From a virus, in IMG/VR virus record IMGVR_UViG_3300048927_000157, positions 1-64,000 of that record: DNA of 64,000 nucleotides. One strand, 5' to 3'. How positions within the stretch are numbered: position 1 is the first letter of the stretch; every line of letters begins with the position of its first letter. Below the pieces are notes generated by a model that worked only from the letters and a program-made list of their open reading frames with translations, did no database searches and was not told the origin of the DNA. Position numbers and translations under genes: made by a program. Shown here in pieces: positions 4,135-53,460 of the stretch.

Positions 4135-4168
4135 TTTGCATATGTCAGATTTTTTTCTTATATTTGCA
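4135..4168 (+). promoter_or_regulatory. phage consensus promoter
   Basis: TTTGCATATGTCAGATTTTTTTCTTATATTTGCA. Confidence 0.65.
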
Positions 4169-8527: not shown

Positions 8528-8603
8528 CGTGGTATATGCTCCATTGGATGGGGATTTAGACTGTCACTCTTCAAAAACGAGGGTTCGAATCCCTCTATCA
8601 CGG
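8528..8603 (+). tRNA. tRNA-Asp(GTC), weak anticodon and D stems (possibly degenerate)
   Basis: Acceptor CGTGGTA/TATCACG, T arm GAGGG-TTCGAAT-CCCTC, anticodon loop CTGTCAC. Only 3 bp of anticodon stem. Confidence 0.55.
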
Positions 8604-8610
8604 CAAACAT

Positions 8611-10286: not shown

Positions 10287-10366
10287 GCTCTCATGGTGGA
10301 ATTGGTAGACACGTAAGACTTAAAATCTTATCCTTCGGGGTCTGGGTTCGAGTCCCAGTGGGAGTA
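10287..10366 (+). tRNA. tRNA-Leu(TAA)
   Basis: GCTCTCA/TGGGAGT, TAAGA-CTTAAAA-TCTTA, long variable arm, CTGGG-TTCGAGT-CCCAG. Confidence 0.9.
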
Positions 10367-10483
10367 CAAAGCCTATCCGAATTGAAGGAGTAGGGTATTG
10401 ATGAACTAGGGGTTCGATTCCCCTGACTTATGAAGGTTCGTAGCCTGACAGTGGTTGGTATCAAAAAGCAATTAGGGGTAATT

Positions 10484-10982: not shown

Positions 10983-11495
10983 ATGAAAAAAGTAGATTTT
11001 CGTAAATGCTTGGTACTTGATTCACAGTATTTACCTAGACAAATTGTGACATCTGAAAGAGCTTATGTAGTTTCTCTTAAAGGTAATGCAGATATTCTAC
11101 ATGAACACCCTGAGAGATTCGGGTTAGTAAACCCAGAATTGGAGATCTTCAGACCGTCCGTAATAAGAGTTCCGAGATTCATCAATCTGGATATCCACAA
11201 GGTTCCTTGTAACAGGGACAATGTTTTCAAAAGAGATAATTACACATGTGTGTACTGTGGAGAGGATGATGCAAGAGCAATGACTATTGACCACGTAATC
11301 CCTAAATCTAAAGGTGGAAAGGATACTTGGGACAACTTAGTAACTGCTTGTAAACCTTGTAACTCAGACAAAAATGACTTAACAATAGAAGAGTGGGGTA
11401 AGGAGAATCCAAATCCTAGAAGACCACACTACTTGATGTTTATCAAACATCTAGGTGCTATTCCAAAAGATTGGGAGCAGTACTTACTAAAATAA
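10983..11495 (+). CDS. HNH endonuclease
   Basis: CVYCGEDDARAMTIDHVIPKSKGGKDTWDNLVTACKPCNSDKN. Confidence 0.9.
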   Translation: MKKVDFRKCLVLDSQYLPRQIVTSERAYVVSLKGNADILHEHPERFGLVNPELEIFRPSVIRVPRFINLDIHKVPCNRDNVFKRDNYTCVYCGEDDARAMTIDHVIPKSKGGKDTWDNLVTACKPCNSDKNDLTIEEWGKENPNPRRPHYLMFIKHLGAIPKDWEQYLLK

Positions 11496-15891: not shown

Positions 15892-15925
15892 TTTGCATAT
15901 TAAGAAAAGTTTTTATATCTTTGCA
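15892..15925 (+). promoter_or_regulatory. phage consensus promoter with upstream TTTAACAAAATTTTAAC element
   Basis: TTTGCATATTAAGAAAAGTTTTTATATCTTTGCA. The upstream element lies at 15866-15883. Confidence 0.7.
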
Positions 15926-15962
15926 AAGTAATAATTAATCAATAACCAAAAATCATAATAAG

Positions 15963-17639
15963 ATGTTCGACAGCAAACAAAAAAGTTTATTTGAAGTTAC
16001 TTCAAAAAACAAACCAGCAACATCTGCATTCGTTAATGCAGCTTTAAAGAAAGGAGCAGAAACACTATCGGGTAACGGAGCCCTAAAATATTCCTCAACA
16101 GGATCAGCATTAGTTGACCAGTTCGGAGTTATGGGTAAGTTCAAAGCACCAAGATCTTTCCAGGATATCAGTAGAGATGCTGAATTACTTTGGGCAGACG
16201 ATAAGTGGGATGCAGTAGCATTCTCTGTCTTCGTGAGAATGATCTCAAGACAGACTATGTATCAGGATGGTACAATGACTTCTGTTTCACAAAAAGGAGG
16301 AGAGCTTAGACATGAAGGTATCATGAGATTCTTATGGTTACACTTCAAGGATGAGAAAACTTTCTGGACTAACGTAGGTCTAATGATCTCAGCAGGATCA
16401 TGGAAAGATATCTTCACGATGCTTTCTTATGACTTAGTACACCACGGGTGGAATGGAAGAAAGTTAAACTGGAAAAAGTTTGGAGAACTTATCCTTTCAG
16501 GATTAGAAAATTCAAACACTAGTGACTTAATTAAAAAGTATCTTCCACAGATCAAAGCTAAATCTTCTTGCAAAACTGTTGAGGCTCAGGCTGATACAAT
16601 CATTGCTAAATGGATTTGCTCATTAGTATTCGGTACAAAAGAAAATGCAGGATCTACTTACAAACAGTACAGAAAATTAAAAACTTCTGGTACTGCTCAT
16701 GAATGGCAGAAGTTAATTTCTACAAAGCAATTTGATAGAATTGATTTCAACAAAGTTCATGGTAGAGCTCTTTCTAAACTTGTACAAGGTAAGTTCTTGT
16801 TCAACCAAAAACTTTCTGACAAGTATGCAGAGTGGATCAAGGCTCCAGAAACTAAAGAAGTTAAATACACAGGTTTCGTTCACGAGTTGTTCGAAGGTCT
16901 AGGTAAGAGAGCTAGAAGAAAAGTTACTTCTCAAGAGGAAGAAACTATTAACAAGCAATTTGCTACTCTTGTTAAAAAAGGTGGAGAGACTGGTCAAACT
17001 AGTCTAATTGTAGTAAGAGATACATCAGGATCTATGAGCTCACCAGCTACTGGAACTACGATGAGCTGCTACGATATTGCTAAGGCACTTGCCCTTTACT
17101 TCTCTGAATTCTTAACAGGTAGATTTGCAGATGCATGGATCGAGTTCAACTCAGATGCTCAGATGCATACTTGGAAAGGTCAGACTCCAGTAGACAAGTG
17201 GAAAAACGATCACTCAAGTTACGTTGGTGGTACTAACTTCCAATCAGTAATTAACCTTTTCGTTAATCTGAAGCAAAAAGGAATTTCAGAAGAAGATTTC
17301 CCAACAGGAATCTTATGTATCTCTGATAGTGAATTCAACCCAACTTCGTTAGGTAAAACTAACGTTGAAACTGCAAAGGAAACTTTGAGAAGAGCTGGGT
17401 TCTCTAAAGAGTATGTGGATAACTTTGTGATTGTTCTTTGGAACCTACAGTCAGGATACTACGGTAGAGGGACTGGAGAGAAGTTTGAAACTTATGGAGA
17501 CGTTAAAAACGTATTCTATTTCAGTGGATACTCTGCTACCACTGTAGGATTCTTGACTAACACCAAGATCAAAACAGCAGAAGAATTAGTAAGAGAGGCA
17601 TTGTCTCAGGAGCTGATTCAAAGAGTAGAAGTTCTATAA
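15963..17639 (+). CDS. DUF2828-like protein: helical N-terminal domain plus C-terminal vWA/MIDAS domain (Ro60-like architecture)
   Basis: N-terminal ...LSGNGALKYSSTGSALVDQFG... (remembered DUF2828 signature). A vWA MIDAS motif VVRDTSGSMSS sits near residue 350. 558 aa. Confidence 0.7.
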   Translation: MFDSKQKSLFEVTSKNKPATSAFVNAALKKGAETLSGNGALKYSSTGSALVDQFGVMGKFKAPRSFQDISRDAELLWADDKWDAVAFSVFVRMISRQTMYQDGTMTSVSQKGGELRHEGIMRFLWLHFKDEKTFWTNVGLMISAGSWKDIFTMLSYDLVHHGWNGRKLNWKKFGELILSGLENSNTSDLIKKYLPQIKAKSSCKTVEAQADTIIAKWICSLVFGTKENAGSTYKQYRKLKTSGTAHEWQKLISTKQFDRIDFNKVHGRALSKLVQGKFLFNQKLSDKYAEWIKAPETKEVKYTGFVHELFEGLGKRARRKVTSQEEETINKQFATLVKKGGETGQTSLIVVRDTSGSMSSPATGTTMSCYDIAKALALYFSEFLTGRFADAWIEFNSDAQMHTWKGQTPVDKWKNDHSSYVGGTNFQSVINLFVNLKQKGISEEDFPTGILCISDSEFNPTSLGKTNVETAKETLRRAGFSKEYVDNFVIVLWNLQSGYYGRGTGEKFETYGDVKNVFYFSGYSATTVGFLTNTKIKTAEELVREALSQELIQRVEVL

Positions 17640-17676
17640 GGTGAAAATCCTTTAACATAAAATTAACACTGCAAAA

Positions 17677-17710
17677 TTTGCATATCTCAAAAAGATTTTG
17701 TATCTTTGCA
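17677..17710 (+). promoter_or_regulatory. phage consensus promoter driving the tRNA-like array
   Basis: TTTGCATATCTCAAAAAGATTTTGTATCTTTGCA, with upstream TTTAACATAAAATTAAC. No ORF follows for about 1.06 kb. Confidence 0.7.
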
Positions 17711-17935
17711 GTGTTATTAATGAGGTTACTATCAGCAAATACACAACAAAAACATATAATTGATTCAAAAATAAGTAACGTAGAATGCAAAAGCACAGCC
17801 ATCTCTACACTTCGAGTCCTGTATGTGAGAAGTAAAATTGTATAGGAAGGTCTTGAGATGACTTTAAAAGCAAGCAGAGGATTAAAACCCTTGGTAACCT
17901 GTCTATAAAAACTCATACAGCAACTATAAAGCAAC

Positions 17936-18032
17936 GGTATCATAAACCCCAGTCAGAGGTTCGAATCCTCTCCTCCCAACAAAGTTAAATCTTAAAAAAT
18001 ACATCGGGAGGTAGTGAAGTGGTTATCACGGG
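17936..18032 (+). ncRNA. circularly permuted tRNA gene, initiator-like tRNA-Met(CAT): 3' half, 25-nt linker, 5' half
   Basis: 17936-17979 GGT-ATCATAA-ACCCC-AGTC-AGAGG-TTCGAAT-CCTCT-CCTCCCA-A; 18005-18032 CGGGAGG-TA-GTGA-AGTGGTTA-TCAC-G-GG. Joined, they give a 72-nt cloverleaf with a C1xA72 mismatch and anticodon stem GGGGT/ACCCC. Confidence 0.65.
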
Positions 18033-18085
18033 TAAAAGCAAAAAGTGAGTTTTGATAAAGTTTCATACAGCAAACACACAGTTAA

Positions 18086-18179
18086 GCATTGAAAGCCGTT
18101 GGTCGGGGGTTCGAGTCCTTCCTCCCAAACAAAGTTAAATCTAGAAATCTTTGGGAGTAGCTCAGTTGGTAGAGCAACG
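18086..18179 (+). ncRNA. circularly permuted tRNA gene, anticodon TGA with short variable arm: 3' half, 21-nt linker, 5' half
   Basis: 18086-18129 GC-ATTGAAA-GCCGT-TGGTC-GGGGG-TTCGAGT-CCTTC-CTCCCAA-A; 18151-18179 TTGGGAG-TA-GCTC-AGTTGGTA-GAGC-A-ACG. Joined, every stem is fully paired (73 nt; G-U pairs in the T stem). Confidence 0.65.
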
Positions 18180-18497
18180 TTAAAACAAAAAATGAAACTT
18201 GAATAAGAACAGTAACAGCAAATTTTATCACAGAAACTACCATCTTAAGTTTTATGGTGTAACAGGTAGCACACTGGGAATAAGAATCCCAGAGGTTTTG
18301 GTTCGAATCCATCTTAGATAATCTGTTCTGACAAGATTGCTAACAGCAAATTAAACAAACACTTGAATTTTAATCAAACCTAGTTTAGTATGCAATCTGA
18401 AAAAATTACCTACAGCAAACTAAAACAAAATCAAAATAGGAAATTTGAAAAACAAAAGGTAATTTGATAAAGCTACACACAGCAAATAAACGTTTAT

Positions 18498-18599
18498 AAA
18501 TTTTTATTTGGATTAAAAACGATTTGGGTTCGAATCCCGAAGCCCTTGACCGAGGCACTTGGATGTGGAATATCGGTGTCAACAAGACCTGTAGCTTGT
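18498..18599 (+). ncRNA. degenerate permuted tRNA-like module (anticodon arm, T arm, closed helix, D-like hairpin)
   Basis: TTTTA-TTTGGAT-TAAAA (TGG loop), TTGGG-TTCGAAT-CCCGA, helix TTGACCGA/TCGG(TG)TCAA capped by a 19-nt loop, then CAAG-ACCTGTAG-CTTG. The geometry is imperfect. Confidence 0.3.
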
Positions 18600-18603
18600 A
18601 TTT

Positions 18604-18675
18604 GGTCCGTTCGTCTATCGGTGAGGACATTAGATTTTCGATCTAAGAAGATGGGTTCGATTCCCATACGGACTA
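18604..18675 (+). tRNA. tRNA-Glu(TTC)
   Basis: GGTCCGT/ACGGACT, TTAGA-TTTTCGA-TCTAA, ATGGG-TTCGATT-CCCAT. Confidence 0.9.
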
Positions 18676-18680
18676 CAATT

Positions 18681-18754
18681 GGTTCTTTAGCTCAACTAGG
18701 TAGAGCAGCAGTCTCTAAAACTGTGTGTTATGGGTTCGAATCCCATAAGAATCA
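18681..18754 (+). tRNA. amber suppressor tRNA, anticodon CTA
   Basis: GGTTCTT/AAGAATC, GCTC-AACTAGGTA-GAGC, GCAGT-CTCTAAA-ACTGT, GTGTT, ATGGG-TTCGAAT-CCCAT. The 7-nt loop has U33, CTA and A37. Confidence 0.85.
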
Positions 18755-18774
18755 CAACCAAAATTTTATACATT

Positions 18775-19134
18775 ATGAAAAAAGGAGACGAATTAGTAGG
18801 TTAGGTTGGAAATGAATTCCTAACTATTATTACAAGAGAAGACCTGAAACCAGGTTACAAATGTGTGCAAAGTGCACATGCATTGGCTGATTTTGCAGTC
18901 AAGTTTGAAGATGAATTTAAGCAGTGGCAGTTGGGTAGTAATTACCTGTGTTGCCTGGAAGCTTCGGAATCCAAAATTGAAAGGATACTCCACAGATTAG
19001 ATGACTTAAAAATTAAGTACCATAAATTCTTGGAACCTGATATCGGAAACCAAATGACAGCAGTAGCTGTTGAAGCAATCTCCAGAGAACAACATAAAAA
19101 ACTTTTTAAGAATTTACAACTAACATTAAATTAA
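18775..19134 (+). CDS. PTH2-like (peptidyl-tRNA hydrolase 2 family) protein with an in-frame TAG at codon 10
   Basis: ATG 18775, then MKKGDELVG-TAG(18802)-VGNEFLTIITREDLKPGYKCVQSAHA... The LTIITREDL..G.K.VQSAHA block matches the PTH2 N-terminus and lies upstream of the GTG (18865) used in the track. There is no in-frame start between 18805 and 18864. Confidence 0.5.
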
Positions 19135-19141
19135 AATTATC

Positions 19142-19417
19142 ATGAAAAAATTTGAGGCAATCAGACAAGCAATAAAAACATTATCAGAGGACCAAAAAAA
19201 ATACAAGCCTTTGAGAAAACCTTCTAACATTAAAGCAGATGACCCAGACTCTCCAGAATGGTATCAGCAAGCTGTTAGAAGTAACAAATATGAGCTAAGA
19301 CACTTATTCCAGGCTTACTCTGTACTGAAAGGAAAGCAAAGGCAGGAAACAAAAAGAAAGGAGATCTCCGAATCTTATGTAACTAAACTTGTGCAGCAGT
19401 ATGGAGACAATTTGTAA
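19142..19417 (+). CDS. hypothetical protein
   Basis: Co-directional ORF. No motif recognised. Confidence 0.55.
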   Translation: MKKFEAIRQAIKTLSEDQKKYKPLRKPSNIKADDPDSPEWYQQAVRSNKYELRHLFQAYSVLKGKQRQETKRKEISESYVTKLVQQYGDNL

Positions 19418-19649
19418 AAGTTCCAGGATAGTGTTCCACTTCAATAAGAAACACAATGAAGACAAAGATGTCCCAGCATGGGTGGTGAAGTGTAAAGGTG
19501 AGACGTACTATGTGGATCATTTAGATTCCAGGGTCGGCTTCACAACTAAGGAGACTCCAGACAACAGTCATACAAAAGGAAGTCTTCAGTTTAAAGGCTC
19601 ATTAAAAATTATTAAAGAAAACAACATGACTACTGCTCTTATTGAGTAG
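19401..19649 (+). CDS. hypothetical protein
   Basis: Track ORF 19389 trimmed to METICKSS... Ends in a tandem TAG TAG. Confidence 0.55.
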   Translation: METICKSSRIVFHFNKKHNEDKDVPAWVVKCKGETYYVDHLDSRVGFTTKETPDNSHTKGSLQFKGSLKIIKENNMTTALIE

Positions 19650-19827
19650 TAGTCTATTATAAGCAGAGTGTACCATTAGGTGTGGGTTTAGTGTGCAAGC
19701 TAAACGAAAGTTTGCTGCCGAGTAGAAAGAATTCAAAGTTACAAAGGAGTCATGACTGGAGTAATGAGAAGGGCAACTACAGAGTTTCAAACGGAAGTGG
19801 TTCGATTCCTCCTCTCTGCTCCAATAT

Positions 19828-19900
19828 TGCTACATGGAGAAATAGGTTACCTCGTCAGTCTCATAAGCTGAAGATCCAGGTTCGAGTCCTGGTGGAGCTA
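19828..19900 (+). tRNA. tRNA-Met(CAT)-like, weak acceptor stem
   Basis: TCAGT-CTCATAA-GCTGA and CCAGG-TTCGAGT-CCTGG are perfect. Acceptor TGCTACA/TGGAGCT pairs at only 5 of 7 positions. Alternative 5' strand TGCTCCA at 19817. Confidence 0.55.
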
Positions 19901-20089
19901 CTAATCCCTTGAAAGAGTTCAGCCTTTGAGTGAGGTGTGTAAGGTTAAATAACACTGGGCACGAGAGGTACTTTATGAGTTTTTGTGTTTAAAAAACTTA
20001 GGTTTGGTTGCAGTGTGCTGCCTTTCCCTTAAAAATGGAAGCAAGAAGTAAAAGAGGATATCAGCCTGATTAGCTTCACGTCCTCATTT

Positions 20090-20161
20090 CCTGATATGGT
20101 ATAGTGGCTATTACGTGACCCTCATAAAGTCAACAGCCAAGTTCGATTCTTGGTATCGGGA
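20090..20161 (+). tRNA. tRNA with CAT anticodon (elongator Met or Ile2)
   Basis: CCTGATA/TATCGGG, loop CTCATAA, CCAAG-TTCGATT-CTTGG. Confidence 0.8.
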
Positions 20162-20269
20162 CAAAAATAACTGAAGTAAAATAGAGTATCTGAGGAGTCC
20201 TTTTTAGGGGGTGTTGATACAGAGAGGGTAGCCCTGTTACAAGGGTGTAGTTTGAAAGTTATTTTATTT

Positions 20270-20342
20270 GCCCTCATAGCTCAACTGCATAGAGCAACTC
20301 CCTTCTAAGGTGTCGATACAGGTTGGAATCCTGTTGGGGGCT
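20270..20342 (+). tRNA. tRNA-Arg(TCT)
   Basis: GCCCTCA/TGGGGGC, GCTC-AACTGCATA-GAGC, loop CTTCTAA, ACAGG-TTGGAAT-CCTGT. Confidence 0.85.
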
Positions 20343-20355
20343 CAAAATTAAAATT

Positions 20356-20865
20356 ATGAATAATTGTTTGCACTGTGGTACAGAGACTACAAATCCAAAA
20401 TATTGTTGTAGGTCATGTTCTGCTAAGCATACAAATGTTAAATTTCCTAAAAAGAAATTAACTAGGACTTGTAGTAAGTGTAGCTCAGTTGTAAAATCTT
20501 ATAAACATAGTTTATGTGAATTCCATCATGAAGAATTAAAACAAACAAAGTATGAGGTTACAAAAAATTTAACTCTACAAGATTACTGGAATAAAAAATC
20601 ATTAGATGGTTTACATACTTCTTCAAAAAATGCACATATAAGACAGTTAGGTCGAACTAAATTTAAAGACCTTTTGAGAAAGCCTTGTGCTAATTGTGGG
20701 TATTCTAAACATGTGGAGTTATGTCATATTAAACCAATAAGGGATTTTAAACCAACTGATAAAGTAGACCTAGTCAATGCAAGAGATAATGTGATACAAC
20801 TTTGTCCAAACTGTCACTGGGAATTTGATAATGGATATTTAAAATTGTTAAGGCAATTATTATAA
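20356..20865 (+). CDS. HNH homing-type endonuclease
   Basis: N-terminal Cys clusters. C-terminal CANCGYSKHVELCHIKP...NVIQLCPNCHWEFDNG. Sits between two tRNA genes. The track start at 20323 is inside tRNA-Arg. Confidence 0.75.
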   Translation: MNNCLHCGTETTNPKYCCRSCSAKHTNVKFPKKKLTRTCSKCSSVVKSYKHSLCEFHHEELKQTKYEVTKNLTLQDYWNKKSLDGLHTSSKNAHIRQLGRTKFKDLLRKPCANCGYSKHVELCHIKPIRDFKPTDKVDLVNARDNVIQLCPNCHWEFDNGYLKLLRQLL

Positions 20866-20940
20866 GGCTTCTTAGCTCAGCCTGGTCAGAGCAGCTCCCT
20901 CATAAGGAGAAGGTCACAGGTTCAAATCCTGTAGGAGCCA
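20866..20940 (+). tRNA. tRNA-Met(CAT)
   Basis: GGCTTCT/AGGAGCC, GCTC-AGCCTGGTCA-GAGC, loop CTCATAA, ACAGG-TTCAAAT-CCTGT. Starts 1 nt after the HNH stop. Confidence 0.85.
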
Positions 20941-20956
20941 CATCAAAAATTTAAAA

Positions 20957-21241
20957 ATGAAACAAGAGAGATTAAATGAACTAGGATTTCATGTCCATGT
21001 GATAAAAAAAGAAACTCCTATGCTTGGAAAAGTAATATTCAGAAAAAAAGGATTTTCTCACGGGTGGGAACTTACTCTTCCTTATACAACACATCACGGA
21101 TCTTTTCTTGGGAATGACATCCAACTTACTTCCACACTATATAAAGTAACAGGAGACCAAAGAGAACTTTTAGTTCAAGTTAAAGGAGATCTTTCTGATG
21201 CAGCTATGGAAGAAATAATCACCAATGCAATAAGGGAGTAA
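20957..21241 (+). CDS. hypothetical protein
   Basis: Co-directional ORF. Confidence 0.55.
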   Translation: MKQERLNELGFHVHVIKKETPMLGKVIFRKKGFSHGWELTLPYTTHHGSFLGNDIQLTSTLYKVTGDQRELLVQVKGDLSDAAMEEIITNAIRE

Positions 21242-32816: not shown

Positions 32817-32921
32817 ATGGAAAAACTAAAATTAAAACCACAGTTTGCAGAGGTTATAAATAACACAGATAAAGTCAGATACATTGAGGCACGATTTATA
32901 ACACAAAACGAGGGGAAATAA
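32817..32921 (+). CDS. 34-codon ORF
   Basis: MEKLKLKPQFAEV... The stop lies in the loop of hairpin AGGGG-AAATAA-CCCCT. Confidence 0.25.
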   Translation: MEKLKLKPQFAEVINNTDKVRYIEARFITQNEGK

Positions 32922-32931
32922 CCCCTCACAC

Positions 32932-32994
32932 ACCACTTCTCAGGTTTGAGGTTCTGAAATAATAGGAACGGAGGTTCGATTCCTTCTTGTGGTA
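32932..32994 (+). ncRNA. compact 63-nt tRNA-like element (pseudo-tRNA or att-like relic)
   Basis: T arm GGAGG-TTCGATT-CCTTC, acceptor ACCACTT/TTGTGGT (5 of 7), short D hairpin CTCA-GGTT-TGAG, and GTTC-(11-nt loop)-GAAC in place of an anticodon arm. Confidence 0.3.
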
Positions 32995-33013
32995 CTAAAT
33001 AAAATAAGAAATC

Positions 33014-39916: not shown

Positions 39917-40460
39917 GACTGGTAATGTTTATGGTAAACTAACAGTAGTATCAAGAGCTGACAATGACAAAAATGGATTTGGAAAATGGATATGTAAATG
40001 TGATTGTGGAAATAAGTCTATAGTAGCAGGGATTAATCTGAGAAAAGAAAAAGGAACAAGGTCTTGTGGGTGCTTAAAAAATGAAATAATGTTTACTAAA
40101 AGGAGTGGGAATGCAGTTTTTGGAATCATCCTAAGAAACATTAAAAGTGATTGTAAAAAGAGAAATCTACCTTTTAACATAACCTTAGAGGATGTAAAAG
40201 AGATTACTGTTCAACCTTGTAGTTATTGTAAGAGAGAACCTTATGAATTAAAATGTAGGTATCAAAGACCAGATTCCACTGTAGAGAATGACTGTTTACT
40301 TTTGAATGGTATAGATAGAATCATACCATCAAAAGGTTATACTAAAGGAAATATTACTCCCTGTTGTAAGTACTGTAACAGAGCTAAAAGTGATTTGACT
40401 TTAGATGAATTTAAAAATTTAATCAAATTAATTTATAAAAACTATATTAATGAGACTTAG
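39891..40460 (+). CDS. HNH-type homing endonuclease-like protein
   Basis: CKCDCGN...CGC Cys cluster. C-terminal NGIDRIIPSKGYTKGNITPCCKYCNRAKSD. Confidence 0.6.
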   Translation: MKQRKLIDETGNVYGKLTVVSRADNDKNGFGKWICKCDCGNKSIVAGINLRKEKGTRSCGCLKNEIMFTKRSGNAVFGIILRNIKSDCKKRNLPFNITLEDVKEITVQPCSYCKREPYELKCRYQRPDSTVENDCLLLNGIDRIIPSKGYTKGNITPCCKYCNRAKSDLTLDEFKNLIKLIYKNYINET

Positions 40461-41736
40461 TGTTAGTGAAGATTCACTTAATTACCCTTGTTCAGTTGTA
40501 ACAATTGGACAAGTTTTCGATATAAAAAATGCCGATAACATCAAAAGAGTAGTTCTGTATGGAAACAACGTAATTGTCTCTAAAGACGTTAAACAGGGAG
40601 ACACAATGCTTTACTTTGTAGCAGGTACACAATTGTCAGAGGATCTTTGCTTCAATAACAACCTTTATGATGAGGTCCAGCTTAACAAAGATGTGACAGA
40701 TAAGAAAGGTTACATTTCTGCCAAAAGAAGACTTGTAAAAACTCTTAAACTAAAAGAAACTCTTTCTGATGGAATGTTACTTCCTATTGAAGCTCTAAAC
40801 TACTTAGAGGAGGGTAAACTTGATGCTAAAGGATTCTTGAAAATTGGGGATACATTCACTCACATTGGAGACACTATGATTTGTCAGAAATATGTTCCAC
40901 CAGTTAAGCAATCTGGACTACCAAAAGGTGAGAAGCAGCCTAAAGAAAATAGATTGAAAGATCTACTATTGGATAATCAATTCAGATTCCACTCAGACAC
41001 AGCTCATTTTGCCAGAAATCTGGATAAGTTTGGAGCAGGAACTCAAATTGTTGTGACTAGGAAGTATCATGGGTCTTCATTGATCCTAAGTCATGTGTTA
41101 GTGAAGAAAGAGCTTAACTGGTTTGAGAAATTGATTGACAAGTATATTACTCCACTTCCTAAAACTCAATGGGGGTACATTCACTCATCTGGTAAACCTA
41201 AATCAAGACTGCCTAAAGGGGTGGAAGCTGAGCAGGTTGGATGGACTTCTCACACTCCTAGTTTCTACTCTGCCAATATTTGGAAGAGAGCAATGGAAAT
41301 GCATAAACACAACCTTGAGAAAGGAATCACTATTTATGGTGAAATTGTGGGTCAGGGAGTTCAGGGTGAGGGTTTCACTTATGGTTTCGAGTATGAGATC
41401 TTTGTGTATAGAATCACTTATACCAACCCAGATGGACAGGTTTACGAGTTCTCATGGGAGGCAGTGAAGAGGTACTGTGATAAGTATGGAATCAAGTATG
41501 TTGAAGAGTACTTCTCAGGTAAAGTACATGAAATAGTAGGAAAACAAGGAACTACAGAAGATCTGTTGGAGAGATTAAAGGATGCTTATCTTGATAAATC
41601 CTACCCAGACTGTAAGGTTGATGAGGGAATCTGTATCAGAGTAGCTGAGACGGATGAGATCTTCAAACTAAAATCTCCTAAGTTTATTGATGGGGAATCT
41701 AAGGAATTAGAGCAAGGAATCTCCGATGGAGAATAA
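40450..41736 (+). CDS. RNA ligase (Rnl-family nucleotidyltransferase)
   Basis: Motif I TRKYHGSS (K-x-H-G, as in Rnl2 KIHGTN), motif IV-like DEGICIRV, motif V FKLKSPKF. Confidence 0.7.
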   Translation: MRLSVSEDSLNYPCSVVTIGQVFDIKNADNIKRVVLYGNNVIVSKDVKQGDTMLYFVAGTQLSEDLCFNNNLYDEVQLNKDVTDKKGYISAKRRLVKTLKLKETLSDGMLLPIEALNYLEEGKLDAKGFLKIGDTFTHIGDTMICQKYVPPVKQSGLPKGEKQPKENRLKDLLLDNQFRFHSDTAHFARNLDKFGAGTQIVVTRKYHGSSLILSHVLVKKELNWFEKLIDKYITPLPKTQWGYIHSSGKPKSRLPKGVEAEQVGWTSHTPSFYSANIWKRAMEMHKHNLEKGITIYGEIVGQGVQGEGFTYGFEYEIFVYRITYTNPDGQVYEFSWEAVKRYCDKYGIKYVEEYFSGKVHEIVGKQGTTEDLLERLKDAYLDKSYPDCKVDEGICIRVAETDEIFKLKSPKFIDGESKELEQGISDGE

Positions 41737-43555: not shown

Positions 43556-43641
43556 CAGTGTATAACTCAATGGTAGAGTCTTGCTGGGATGAGTAGAAAT
43601 ACTCGGAGTGAGGTTAGGGGGTTCGATTCCCCCTTACACTA
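43556..43641 (+). ncRNA. tRNA-like gene whose anticodon loop is replaced by a GAAA-capped extension
   Basis: Acceptor (C)AGTGTA/TACACT(A), D arm ACTC-AATGGTA-GAGT, T arm GGGGG-TTCGATT-CCCCC, stem TTGCT/AGTGA enclosing GGGAT-[GAGTA-GAAA-TACTC]-GG. No 7-nt anticodon loop. Confidence 0.4.
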
Positions 43642-43654
43642 CAAATTTTAGAGT

Positions 43655-49292: not shown

Positions 49293-49782
49293 CACAACAG
49301 ATTTCTTATGTCCTACTTACACAAAGGACTTCACAGTAATTAGAACTGAAATTGGAGATTCCTTGTTAAAAAGTTTAATTAGGCAACATGATGTCATCAT
49401 AATGATGGGTCACGGGGATACCAGAGGACTATATGGATTTGATAGACACATTGTAGATGCTTCCTTTGTTGATGAGTTAAGAAAGAAGATCTGTATTTGT
49501 ATCTGGTGCTATGCTGCTGACTTTGTTGAACATTATGATCTTAAATCTCCATTTTCAACTGGAATGTTTATTTCAGAATCAGAAGAAGCCGATGCTTTAG
49601 GAGAAGAGTATGATGAGGGAGACATAGAAGAGTCAAACTTTTGGTTTACAGAAGCTTTGAAAGGTTTTTTCTCAGACTTAGAAAAATACGATTACAAGAA
49701 ACTAAACCGATGCTACAACGTAGGATTAAACAGTATCACAGAATATAACAGAAAACAATTTATACAAACATGGCACACTTAA
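49261..49782 (+). CDS. hypothetical protein with His-Gly ... Cys pattern
   Basis: VIIMMGHGDTRGLY ... ICICIWCYAADF. Very tentatively caspase-fold-like. Confidence 0.55.
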   Translation: MKVLVIHPQDSTTDFLCPTYTKDFTVIRTEIGDSLLKSLIRQHDVIIMMGHGDTRGLYGFDRHIVDASFVDELRKKICICIWCYAADFVEHYDLKSPFSTGMFISESEEADALGEEYDEGDIEESNFWFTEALKGFFSDLEKYDYKKLNRCYNVGLNSITEYNRKQFIQTWHT

Positions 49783-50912
49783 AAGCACAGGATTTCGAGA
49801 CAGAGAAGGAAAACTTCAGAAAGATGATTCCTTGGATTGAAGAGTCAAGAAACGTTAAAATCCTTCTGGCATTCGTAAGAGGAAGCCATATGTATGGAAC
49901 CAACACGGAGCAGTCAGATGTAGACATTACTTTTGTTTATCAGCAGCCAACCAATGAGATCCTGAAAAACAATTACAAGAAAGATATGAGTATTGGGGGA
50001 GATGATGTAGTTGGGTTTGAGATCCAGAATTTCATGGAACTTCTGGTTAAGAACAACCCAAACATGATTGAGGCTCTTGATATTCCAGATGAGTGTATAA
50101 TCTACAAAAACCCAGTAATGCATGTATTTGATGATTCCAAGCCTTGGATCACAACACTTACTGAAAAAACCATTTTGGGTTATGCAGACTCTCAGATCAA
50201 GAAAGCAACAGGACTTAATAAGAAGATGAATAATCCTCAGCCAAAAGAGAGAAAATCAATTTTGGATTTCTGTTATGTTATCTCAGGTCATAATTCAATT
50301 CCACTCCTAAGATGGGCAGACCAGTTGAATATCAATTTGGATACTTGTGGATTAGTGGATCTTCCAGTAGGAAAAGGACTTCATGGTCTTTATGTAGACA
50401 ATGAAAATAAGTATCAGCTTAGAGGTCTGATTAAAGATGAGGATTCAGTTAACCTGAGACTTTCTTCTATCCCTAAAGAGCTGGCAACAAATTTTGAAGC
50501 TGTCACCATGTATTACAACTTAGATGGTTTCCAAGTTCATTGTAAGGATCATAAAGAGTACTGGGAATGGGAAGCTAAAAGAAATGAAGAAAGATTCAAT
50601 GCTAACCAAAAGGCAGGGCAAGGAGTTGATCTTAAAAATATGTCTCACCTATTCAGACTTCTTGATATGGCTGATAACATTTCCACAGGAAAAGGTCTTA
50701 AAGTGAAATCAGATAACGTGGAGTTCTTGAGAGCTATTAGAGCAGGAGAGTACAACTATGAAGATCTGATGAAACAGGCTGAGGAAAGGTTTCATACCAT
50801 CAAAGGAAATTACATCACAGTTGATCTTCCAGAAGAAGTGGATATCAGCAGGATGAAAGATCTTCTATTACAGTTTAGATTAAATACAGTAAACAGTGGA
50901 ACAAAGTTTTAA
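49770..50912 (+). CDS. RlaP-like nucleotidyltransferase (Pol-beta superfamily, RNA-repair associated)
   Basis: LLAFVRGSHMYGTNTEQSDVDITFVY fits the GS..YG......SD.D motif of the ligase-associated nucleotidyltransferase family. Confidence 0.6.
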   Translation: MAHLKAQDFETEKENFRKMIPWIEESRNVKILLAFVRGSHMYGTNTEQSDVDITFVYQQPTNEILKNNYKKDMSIGGDDVVGFEIQNFMELLVKNNPNMIEALDIPDECIIYKNPVMHVFDDSKPWITTLTEKTILGYADSQIKKATGLNKKMNNPQPKERKSILDFCYVISGHNSIPLLRWADQLNINLDTCGLVDLPVGKGLHGLYVDNENKYQLRGLIKDEDSVNLRLSSIPKELATNFEAVTMYYNLDGFQVHCKDHKEYWEWEAKRNEERFNANQKAGQGVDLKNMSHLFRLLDMADNISTGKGLKVKSDNVEFLRAIRAGEYNYEDLMKQAEERFHTIKGNYITVDLPEEVDISRMKDLLLQFRLNTVNSGTKF

Positions 50913-52533: not shown

Positions 52534-53460
52534 ATGAGTTTAATCACCGTTTTAATCGGTATATCTGGAGCAGGAAAAACAACATTTTCAACTCCTTTAC
52601 TAAAAGATAAAAATACTATCAGAGTAAACAGGGATGATGCCAGAACCATGTTATTTGGAGTAAGTCAATCAGATCAGACTTATTACAACAGAAAAGACAT
52701 TAGAGCATGTGAGGATCTGGTTTCAGAAACCATTGAAGACACAGTTTATAATGCCTTGAATAAAGGAAAAAACATTGTTTTCGATAACACTCATCTTCAA
52801 AAGAAGTATATTGATGAGATTTTATTCAAGTATAATCACTTGGCTGACATTGAGTTAGTATTTTGTGATGTTCCTTTGAAGGAAGCTCAAGATAGAGTTG
52901 TTAAAAGAAACTCATTGGCTTCAGTCCCTGTATACATTGAGAAACACTACAATGACTACATCAAGCTTAAAAAAGCAATGCATGGTCAGCAGTTATTCTA
53001 CCCTCAAACAGCTCCCCAAGTTAAATTCAATTCTTCTCTTCCAGACACTTACATAGTGGATATTGATGGAACGGTTGCTTTGAAAGGAGATAGAGATATC
53101 TTTGATGACTCTAAGCTTCACTTGGATACTGAAATTAAAGAGGTTGGGCACATTATTAGAGCACTCCATAAAGATGGTTTCAAGATAGTGTTTGTATCGG
53201 GAAGACAAGATTCCTGCAAAGATACTACCACTCAATGGTTAAAGGATAAAAACCTCTGGATGACAGATTCTGAAATCTTCATGAGGAAAGCCAAAGACCA
53301 AAGAAATGACAGTATTGTCAAAGAAGAAATAGTATTAAGAGACTTGCTACCAAGATTCAACGTTGTTGGAGTATTGGATGACAGAATAGGGGTGACTAGA
53401 AACTTCCACAAGTTGGGAATGTTCGTCCTGAATGTAAATCAAGGTTTCGTAAAATTTTAA
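52534..53460 (+). CDS. polynucleotide 5'-kinase / 3'-phosphatase (Pnkp, T4 Pnk-like)
   Basis: N-terminal P-loop LIGISGAGKTTF. C-terminal HAD phosphatase motifs IVDIDGTVA, VSGR and LDDR. Confidence 0.85.
   Translation: MSLITVLIGISGAGKTTFSTPLLKDKNTIRVNRDDARTMLFGVSQSDQTYYNRKDIRACEDLVSETIEDTVYNALNKGKNIVFDNTHLQKKYIDEILFKYNHLADIELVFCDVPLKEAQDRVVKRNSLASVPVYIEKHYNDYIKLKKAMHGQQLFYPQTAPQVKFNSSLPDTYIVDIDGTVALKGDRDIFDDSKLHLDTEIKEVGHIIRALHKDGFKIVFVSGRQDSCKDTTTQWLKDKNLWMTDSEIFMRKAKDQRNDSIVKEEIVLRDLLPRFNVVGVLDDRIGVTRNFHKLGMFVLNVNQGFVKF

Follow-up and report, generated by a model that had tools for sequence, protein, structure and literature searches.

Two circularly permuted tRNA units are encoded in a 64,000-nucleotide (nt) stretch of viral DNA, positions 1 to 64,000 of the IMG/VR record IMGVR_UViG_3300048927_000157, which is called the window below. 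Complete tRNAs, anticodon loop included, are encoded in this permuted order across a large phage clade. The permuted tRNA sequences are real, conserved, and under selection. The two units in the window are probably not ordinary tRNA genes, but the tRNA-shaped cargo domains of tandem Y-RNA-like non-coding RNAs. Since the units lie inside stem-closed modules, which form a tandem array beside a gene for a Ro60-like protein, they are most likely parts of Y-RNA-like particles.

Permuted tRNAs inside stem-closed modules

Both units lie on the plus strand in the order 3' piece, linker, and 5' piece. In unit 1, the 3' piece (17936–17979, 44 nt) corresponds to nt 29–73 of tRNA(CAU). It is followed by a 25-nt linker (17980–18004), which caps the acceptor stem and has the conserved sequence CAARGTTAA(A)TCYT, and by the 5' piece (18005–18032, 28 nt; nt 1–28). 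In unit 2, the 3' piece (18086–18129, 44 nt) corresponds to nt 30–73 of tRNA(UGA) with a class I body, the linker is 21 nt long (18130–18150), and the 5' piece (18151–18179, 29 nt) corresponds to nt 1–29. As it stands, the region 17936–18179 is not called as a tRNA by standard tools. Once rejoined (18005–18032 plus 17936–17979), unit 1 is folded by ARAGORN into a tRNA(CAT) of 72 nt with six of the seven acceptor pairs (C1xA72) and all other stems perfect. Rejoined unit 2 (18151–18179 plus 18086–18129) becomes a tRNA(TGA) of 73 nt with 21 of 21 pairs. Both rejoined units have the canonical U33, R37, G18G19 region, and TTCRA T loops, and the universal positions are 7/7. The first-pass annotation of this DNA had described the same pieces and linkers, at the same coordinates, as two full cloverleaves in permuted order, and all of this was recovered. 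Its statement that the 3' pieces are exactly 44 nt holds for the two units of the window, but not for related phages, where they range from 42 to 45 nt.

Each unit is the cargo of a module, a setting that the first-pass annotation had missed. The order in a module is the 5' strand of a closing helix of 7–9 bp, an ACAGCAA box, the cargo, an A-rich tract, and the 3' strand of the helix. The consensus is A-G-R-N-N-W-C-W-U, ACAGCAA, cargo, A-rich tract, and the complementary strand ending in YCU, G. The helix and the box together are called the handle below. The helix differs in sequence from module to module; it is AAAACTCA/TGAGTTTT around unit 1 and AAGTTTCAT/ATGAAACTT around unit 2. Module M1, which holds unit 1, spans 17908–18053 on the plus strand (146 nt). 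Its 5' helix strand (17908–17916), box (17917–17923), and 5' flank (17924–17935) precede the unit, and its 3' flank (18033–18045) and 3' helix strand (18046–18053) follow it. Module M2, which holds unit 2, spans 18058–18200 on the same strand (143 nt), with the 5' helix strand at 18058–18066, the box at 18067–18073, the 5' flank at 18074–18085, the 3' flank at 18180–18191, and the 3' helix strand at 18192–18200. The minimum free energy (MFE) folds of M1 and M2 recover the closing helix, the T arm, the linker-capped acceptor stem, and the D arm. The flanks of M1 and M2 pair through this distal 7–9 bp helix, which is set off from the junction by 19 and 12–13 nt. No bulge-helix-bulge is present at the unit junctions in the sequence and the MFE folds; the junction flanks are A-rich and unpaired.

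Relatives were collected with the 558-aa Ro60-like open reading frame (15963–17639) as the query. This gave 48 loci (L001 to L048) and, together with the window, 49 sources. In the genome contigs scanned for relatives, only phage-like contigs were found, binned in metagenome-assembled genomes. A megablast search of 17000–21000 against GenBank phages and an exact 27-mer scan of IMG/VR gave no match. Modules number 176 and occur in 43 of the 49 sources. A perfect helix of at least 7 bp at the fixed 9-nt offset was found at 135 of 192 plus-strand ACAGCAA sites, and the same test was positive at none of 36 minus-strand ACAGCAA sites and at 1 of 77 control-motif sites.

The payload of every module was circularized at all trim points in a strict cloverleaf test, and a scan for orphan T arms was also used. 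Canonical permuted tRNAs were observed in the window (two) and in L001, L002, L007, L019, L021, L028, L033, and L038 to L040, at least 16 in all. Their anticodons are CAT, TGA, GGA, TCA, GTA, GTG, TCT, TAT, TGT, and GAG. The junctions lie at 28/29, 29/30, or 31/32, and the linkers are 3–26 nt long. At least 20 of the 21 pairs are formed in 17 of 42 real module payloads, compared with 1 of 84 shuffled payloads; the rejoined cloverleaves go beyond chance.

Covariation was analyzed with 16 permuted tRNAs, drawn from the window and from relatives. The alignment was built from the parsed pieces, because the variable linker length made MAFFT slip register on whole modules. Paired cells amount to 98.8%, against 63.7% in shuffles and 36–55% in slid controls. 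The covariation score is 0.94, against 0.25 in shuffles (0/500 shuffles). Nineteen of the 21 pairs vary on both sides, among them the two anticodon-stem pairs that bring together opposite ends of the module. For example, TTGGGAG/CTCCCAA, the acceptor stem of unit 2 in the window, corresponds to AGAGGAG/CTCCTCT in L040, and compensatory changes affect three acceptor pairs in the M2 orthologues of L002 and L040. The anticodon stem of the GUA module is ATAGT/ACTGT in L001 and GCAGA/TCTGC in L039. Compensatory change across the linker, which the first-pass annotation had proposed as a comparison among related phages, is thus strong.

The genomic order might also be read as the 5' half at 18005 joined to the 3' half at 18086 over a 53-nt intron, or as halves transcribed apart and assembled in trans. 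The acceptor strands of the two units are indeed partly complementary (4/7), but this is due to the paralogy of the units. With the 53-nt spacer as an intron, ARAGORN gives no tRNA in the genomic order, introns allowed. In five adjacent module pairs, from five loci, acceptor pairing is 6–7/7 across the linker and 1–4/7 across the spacer, where the register of the anticodon stem also breaks. L037 has one permuted module alone, without any possible downstream partner. Some linkers are just 3 nt long, too short to hold a promoter, which argues against split halves. The chance that the halves belong together across the spacer is practically nil, as the first-pass annotation had already maintained for the conventional intron.

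It is hardly more credible that the units are rearranged pseudogenes of tRNAs, leftovers of recombination, or an artefact of assembly. Arrays of tRNA genes with interspersed HNH endonuclease genes are prone to recombination. However, the architecture recurs in dozens of metagenomic contigs that are independent of one another; every stem shows compensatory changes, and the flanking helices are conserved.

Further variants of permuted tRNAs were observed. In a second permutation class (L007 8989–9102, L021 4528–4642, and L028 13491–13610), the break in the tRNA falls within the 3' strand of the acceptor stem, at about nt 67/68. Upstream of nt 1 stand the final acceptor nucleotides, the discriminator, and, in L021 and L028, CCA. 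The permuted tRNA at L003 9520–9658 has a 9-nt anticodon loop, and in those at L005 8645–8871 and L007 9107–9295 the linker is a structured insertion of 60–90 nt. An initiator identity of unit 1, based on C1xA72, was considered and rejected, as the mismatch is a normal pair in the orthologues in L037 and L038. Short direct repeats at the piece edges (TTAA, TAT, and TAAAGCAA) are inconsistent across orthologues and are best explained by the A-richness of both flanks. There is no Rfam ribozyme match within the window, even at E<=10, and no self-cleaving ribozyme was found in the flanks.

The Ro60-like protein and the module array

The gene upstream of the array (15963–17639, plus strand) encodes a 558-aa protein of the DUF2828/DUF7788 family, with a predicted TROVE-like ring and a vWA domain. 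In Pfam it matches PF25043 (DUF7788) alone, and its homologues match PF11443 (DUF2828) and PF25043. It falls into phrog_850, annotated as "RNA-binding protein". The AlphaFold2 model has a pLDDT of 81, with low confidence for residues 1–26. Full-length PDB fold matches to the model are led by nine Ro60/TROVE proteins, with 9KOP, the Thermus phage phiLo Ro60, in first place (E = 1.7e-7). The MIDAS motif of the vWA domain, D353-x-S355-x-S357, is invariant. The model therefore predicts a Ro60 fold (TROVE plus vWA). Next to the gene for this phiLo Ro60 (9KOP), two Y-like RNAs are encoded, and the protein binds both (PMC12135203).

The synteny of modules and this gene is kept from 93% down to about 22% protein identity. 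In a scan of IMG/VR for triple ACAGCAA, 4 of 80 loci were genuine, the rest being mostly repeats or noise, and all four directly flank Ro60-like genes. One module (15961–16025, plus strand; helix AGATGTT/AACATCT and an ACAGCAA box) lies over the start codon of the Ro60-like gene. It is conserved in L001, L002, L037 to L040, and L043, and it matches the Rfam family Class I RNA at 30.9 bits. From its position it is a candidate autoregulatory site, as a handle over the protein's own start codon fits the autoregulation expected of an RNA-binding protein. The handle is probably the binding site of the Ro60-like protein.

Alternatively, the handle may be a punctuation, processing, or stability element, such as a nuclease or chaperone site, which has nothing to do with the Ro60-like protein. 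The permuted tRNAs would then be one kind of stabilized small RNA. The modules are packed 4–5 nt apart among tRNAs, like processing units. However, the association with the gene persists to 22–28% identity, every genuine RNA-only array flanks the gene, and one handle covers the start codon of the Ro60-like protein itself. Moreover, the ordinary tRNAs elsewhere in the array have no handle. It is quite improbable that the handle is such an element.

Seven tandem modules occupy 17723–18597 of the window, with 4–7 nt between neighbours, all on the plus strand. M0 (17723–17900; helix AGGTTAC/GTAACCT, variant box TCAGCAA) is conserved in L001 and L002. Its 155-nt cargo, the first after the promoter, shows no tRNA features and no Rfam match. 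M1 and M2 are followed by M3 (18206–18329), with a degenerate, non-permuted tRNA-like cargo, an anticodon-like loop AUAAGAA, and an unpaired acceptor. M4 (18334–18398, 65 nt) carries an anticodon-stem-loop-like hairpin with the loop AUUUUAA (UUU) and matches Class I RNA at 27.9 bits. M5 (18403–18465, 63 nt) carries a short hairpin and matches Class I RNA at 21.3 bits. M6 (18470–18597) carries a conserved T-arm-containing element and is the final module of the array in all close relatives. Among the short modules, 33 of 87 have an anticodon-stem-loop-like hairpin as their cargo, against 7% of shuffles, and 16 of these hairpins are UUU. In some modules, the cargo is a T-arm element only.

In the cargo of M6, a U-rich tract is joined by two hairpins, one T-arm-like with a stem that covaries and one whose loop, GGCACUUGGUGUGGAAUAU, is conserved. 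Counterparts of this module are located at L001 8454–8579, L002 8223–8346, L037 5610–5734, L039 5845–5967, and L040 5972–6098.

A promoter-like element, TTTGCATAT...TATCTTTG, lies at 17677–17708 on the plus strand, within an inverted repeat (17664–17716), and fits the Bacteroidota -33/-7 type. The motif is found at the equivalent place in L001, L002, L037, L039, and L040, and it is the probable start of the array transcript. No terminator was found within the module array. The 32-nt motif, TTTGCATAT...TAT(C/A)TTTG, recurs in the window with starts at 4135, 6839, 8212, 8280, 12413, 15892, 17677, 41772, and 52466. Its fit to the Bacteroidota -33/-7 consensus suggests a Bacteroidota host.

Particle or tRNA: the possible fate of the units

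The handle is constant while the cargo varies. With this and the further points given below weighed against the features of real tRNAs, a Y-RNA-like particle is the favoured and reasonably probable product. The single promoter at ~17677–17708 would drive all seven modules and run on into the ordinary tRNAs. Each module would fold alone, with the 7–9 bp helix and the single-stranded ACAGCAA as a constant handle, probably bound by the Ro60-like protein encoded upstream. The cargo would hang from this handle by two A-rich strands of 6–13 nt. For units 1 and 2, the cargo would be a whole tRNA, whose acceptor is capped by the linker and whose ends exit where the 5' strand of the anticodon stem is nicked (28/29 and 29/30). 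Such a geometry would place the intact anticodon loop near the handle and the acceptor end far away.

The particle would show a tRNA shape, or an anticodon stem-loop alone, on the Ro60-like ring, as YrlA does for bacterial Ro60. It may act as a tether or bait for tRNA-recognizing enzymes within the RNA-repair and anti-anticodon-nuclease kit (ligase, Pnkp, and RlaP). The permuted cargo is possibly opened at its acceptor end, where RNase P would cut the cap, followed by 3' processing and CCA addition. These steps are suggested by the CAA trailer signature described below and by the precedent of Mycobacterium smegmatis YrlA, which is cut by RNase P and given CCA (PMC4201824).

Three genes of this kit are encoded on the plus strand of the window. 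The first (40450–41736; phrog_968, PF09414, and PF21189, with TIGR02306 below cutoff) is a DraRnl/Rnl2-like RNA ligase with an N-terminal OB domain, a candidate nick sealer. The second (49770–50912; PF10127, phrog_388) is an RlaP-family nucleotidyltransferase, which is associated with RNA repair. The third (52534–53460; PF25109 plus PF13671, phrog_505) is a T4 Pnkp-like polynucleotide kinase-phosphatase. Iyer et al. described an RNA-repair gene set in jumbo phages, sometimes with a TROVE protein and "a tRNA-like partner" as a repair platform (PMC7824862).

Because the phage encodes a nick-sealing-type ligase, Pnkp, and RlaP, maturation to true tRNAs is kept as a minor alternative. The handle and flanks would then be a removable "permuted intron", and the product a contiguous, translating tRNA. 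The flanks would be trimmed by nucleases to a nick, healed by Pnkp, and joined by the ligase at nt 28/29 (29/30), while RNase P, 3' processing, and CCA addition would remove the linker. That the units are genuine permuted tRNA genes of this kind is unlikely. It is similarly doubtful that both ideas combine, with a Ro60-like particle holding the nicked anticodon-stem ends via the handle until Pnkp and the ligase seal nt 28/29. This would be an un-permutation at the RNA level, independent of splicing endonuclease.

Several features speak for genuine tRNAs. The cloverleaves are perfect and canonical, down to U33, R37, the G18G19 region, and the TTCRA T loops. Without exception, the junctions fall within a helix or at its edge (28/29, 29/30, 31/32, or ~67/68), which is the substrate geometry of Rnl2/DraRnl-type ligases, and Pnkp and RlaP are encoded in the window. 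Nearly all ordinary tRNAs of the phage have CAA, not CCA, right after the discriminator, and the linkers of units 1 and 2 share this trailer signature, as they open with CAA. In L021 and L028, CCA is encoded after the discriminator. In orthologous slots, the anticodon does not leave its codon box (UGA and GGA both belong to the Ser box).

Against genuine tRNAs, there is no evident endonuclease for the two cut sites and no bulge-helix-bulge. The handle also carries cargos with only an anticodon stem-loop or only a T arm, which are unable to become tRNAs. In several relatives, the acceptor stem is capped by a tetraloop-like linker of only 3–5 nt (G|AAA and C|UUG). Ser, Tyr, and Leu anticodons stand on class I bodies in the permuted units, whereas the ordinary Ser, Tyr, and Leu tRNAs of the phage are class II tRNAs of 81–84 nt. 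Under the rules of tRNA identity, such anticodons on class I bodies would not be charged by the cognate bacterial synthetases. The anticodons are also redundant, since ordinary tRNAs in the window already provide CAU and UGA, and the anticodon at a given array slot differs between close relatives. Finally, ligase, Pnkp, and RlaP are common anti-anticodon-nuclease genes of phages in their own right (PMC7824862).

Several observations weigh against Y-RNA-like particles. The complete canonical anticodon arm and all universal tRNA nucleotides are kept, which a mere scaffold would not obviously need, and the linkers of both units open like the trailers of ordinary tRNAs. The modules also sit within tRNA arrays, and the synteny with the Ro60-like gene could therefore partly mirror a shared "translation/RNA" neighbourhood. 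The gathering score of YrlA (69 bits) is not reached by unit 2 (36.2 bits), nor in 11 relatives. The Ro60-binding motif GNCGAAN0-1G is absent from 15900–18700 and was found in only 2 of the 176 modules. Likewise, the gathering score of Class I RNA (41.5) is not reached, the best module of the window having 30.9 bits.

The plus-strand tRNA array (8.5–21 kb) contains 23 tRNAs found by ARAGORN/Rfam, including a CUA suppressor. The suppressor tRNA (18681–18755) directly follows the module array, and a permuted UCA tRNA is present in L001 and L039. These tRNAs may indicate stop-codon recoding in this phage group. Orphan T arms were detected outside the called tRNAs, at 19663–19818, 10341–10433, 32837–32995, 43557–43642, and 8528–8604. 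One of these elements is tRNA-like, about 155 nt long, with the acceptor strands AGCAGAG/CTCTGCU around a long insertion; the set also has several more tRNA-like elements that are long or odd, and a tRNA-Asp with a low score. HNH endonuclease genes lie within the tRNA array (10983–11495 and 20323–20865), and in L037 and L038 the Ro60-like gene has LAGLIDADG genes as neighbours. Near the tRNA and module arrays of relatives, Hatchet ribozymes, group I introns, and a tmRNA were found, all above Rfam gathering (L020 4514–4599, L022 1065–1249, L031 12824–13111, L033 8540–8755, L027 2190–2739, and L028 627–1178).

Comparison with known RNA families

Two-piece (permuted) tmRNA is a bacterial precedent for permutation in a tRNA-like gene, and its acceptor end, too, is opened in the course of processing. 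The phage units differ from it in that they have an anticodon loop and have neither a tag reading frame nor the alanine identity pair. A permuted tmRNA was rejected as the identity of the units, with a score of 16.2 bits for Rfam tmRNA_permuted (RF04321) against a gathering score of 47, and with no tmRNA called by ARAGORN.

Soma et al. 2007, Maruyama et al. 2010, and Chan et al. 2011 are said to have described permuted tRNA genes in Cyanidioschyzon merolae, some green algae, nucleomorphs, and Thermofilum pendens. Genes of the C. merolae type share with the phage units the order 3' half, linker, and 5' half, the canonical tRNA obtained on rejoining, and the pairing of the flanks. They have a bulge-helix-bulge at the junction, which is cut by the archaeal/eukaryal splicing endonuclease, and they mature through a circular intermediate. 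In contrast, the phage units have no bulge-helix-bulge, and their flanks form a distal helix with a conserved box that also carries non-tRNA cargos. No endonuclease of that kind is known for the phage units. The phage units raise the question of whether they are ever sealed into working tRNAs by the phage ligase. If they are true tRNA precursors, un-permutation would take place at the RNA level in a bacterial virus, without an archaeal/eukaryal splicing endonuclease.

Class I RNAs (RF01414; Kjellin et al. 2021) were reported to be unique to Dictyostelia (PMC7919456). The modules resemble them in the short stem joining the ends, the ACAGCAA motif after its 5' strand, the variable remainder, the A-rich 3' part, and the G...CUG ends. 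The handle is close to the Rfam consensus, GaUcuCCUUACAGCAA...A-rich...GagAuCUG. Three window modules (15961–16025, M4, and M5) align over the full Class I model, at 31, 28, and 21 bits. Within the 11-nt motif of Class I RNAs (CCUUACAGCAA, Rfam consensus), ACAGCAA is invariant at the same place in the modules. The four positions before it, which belong to the helix, agree only in part: position 7 is C in 74%, and position 9 is U in 52%. The lengths of M4 and M5 (65 and 63 nt) fit the 42–65 nt of Class I RNAs, whereas M1 and M2 are longer, with 146 and 143 nt. The modules come from phages, not Dictyostelia, and in Dictyostelium the known partner is Rnp1A, an RRM protein. About 90 short modules in L001 to L048 are like the short modules of the window that resemble Class I RNA.

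The resemblance may reflect homology or convergence, and it may link Class I RNAs to DUF2828 Ro60-like proteins. A pull-down with a Class I RNA gave four proteins, of which one, DDB_G0281243, is uncharacterized. Class I RNAs are abundant and lack a known mechanism (PMC7919456), and the phage handle is nearly the same as their defining stem and ACAGCAA. In the case of homology, Class I RNAs may be the Y-RNA equivalents of a Ro60 paralogue.

The closest known counterparts of the modules are YrlA RNAs (RF02553), together with Yrl1/2 of phiLo (PMC12135203). Chen et al. 2014 showed for over 250 bacteria and phages that YrlA Y RNAs are neighbours of Ro60 genes (PMC4201824). Their tRNA-like domain consists of a T arm, a loop-closed acceptor stem, and a D arm (PMC4201824). 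Like YrlA, the phage modules lie beside a Ro60-fold gene, often several in tandem, and their 5' and 3' ends pair to form what is probably the protein-binding part. The effector domain has the shape of a tRNA written in permuted order, and the RNA ends enter at the anticodon-stem position. The T arm, capped acceptor, and D arm core of unit 2 matches Rfam YrlA over 18097–18180 (cmscan, 36.2 bits, E = 1.3e-5, model positions 23–86). The first-pass annotation had taken the units for stand-alone permuted tRNA genes without bacterial or phage precedent. As worded, this claim is not supported, as each unit is the cargo of a module and the topology is already known from YrlA-type Y RNAs (PMC4201824).

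The differences from YrlA are also clear. The phage modules keep a complete anticodon stem-loop, so that a full cloverleaf can be rejoined. Their handle is a variable helix plus ACAGCAA, instead of the GNCGAAN0-1G helix. Their protein is a divergent DUF2828/DUF7788 paralogue, which is Ro60-like by predicted fold and not by Pfam TROVE. Their arrays reach 7–10 modules, including cargos with an anticodon stem-loop only. The modules are a probable RNA partner for the large uncharacterized DUF2828/DUF7788 family, whose function class is then probably that of a Ro60-like ribonucleoprotein. The frequent Lys-UUU anticodon loop and the co-encoded ligase, Pnkp, and RlaP point to a phage–host conflict over tRNA cleavage. 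The idea of YrlA as a "tRNA-mimic Y RNA" is here extended to full tRNAs. The system belongs with the Ro60/Y-RNA tRNA mimics, and what is new in it is the full anticodon arm, the different handle, the divergent Ro60 paralogue, and the tandem arrays.

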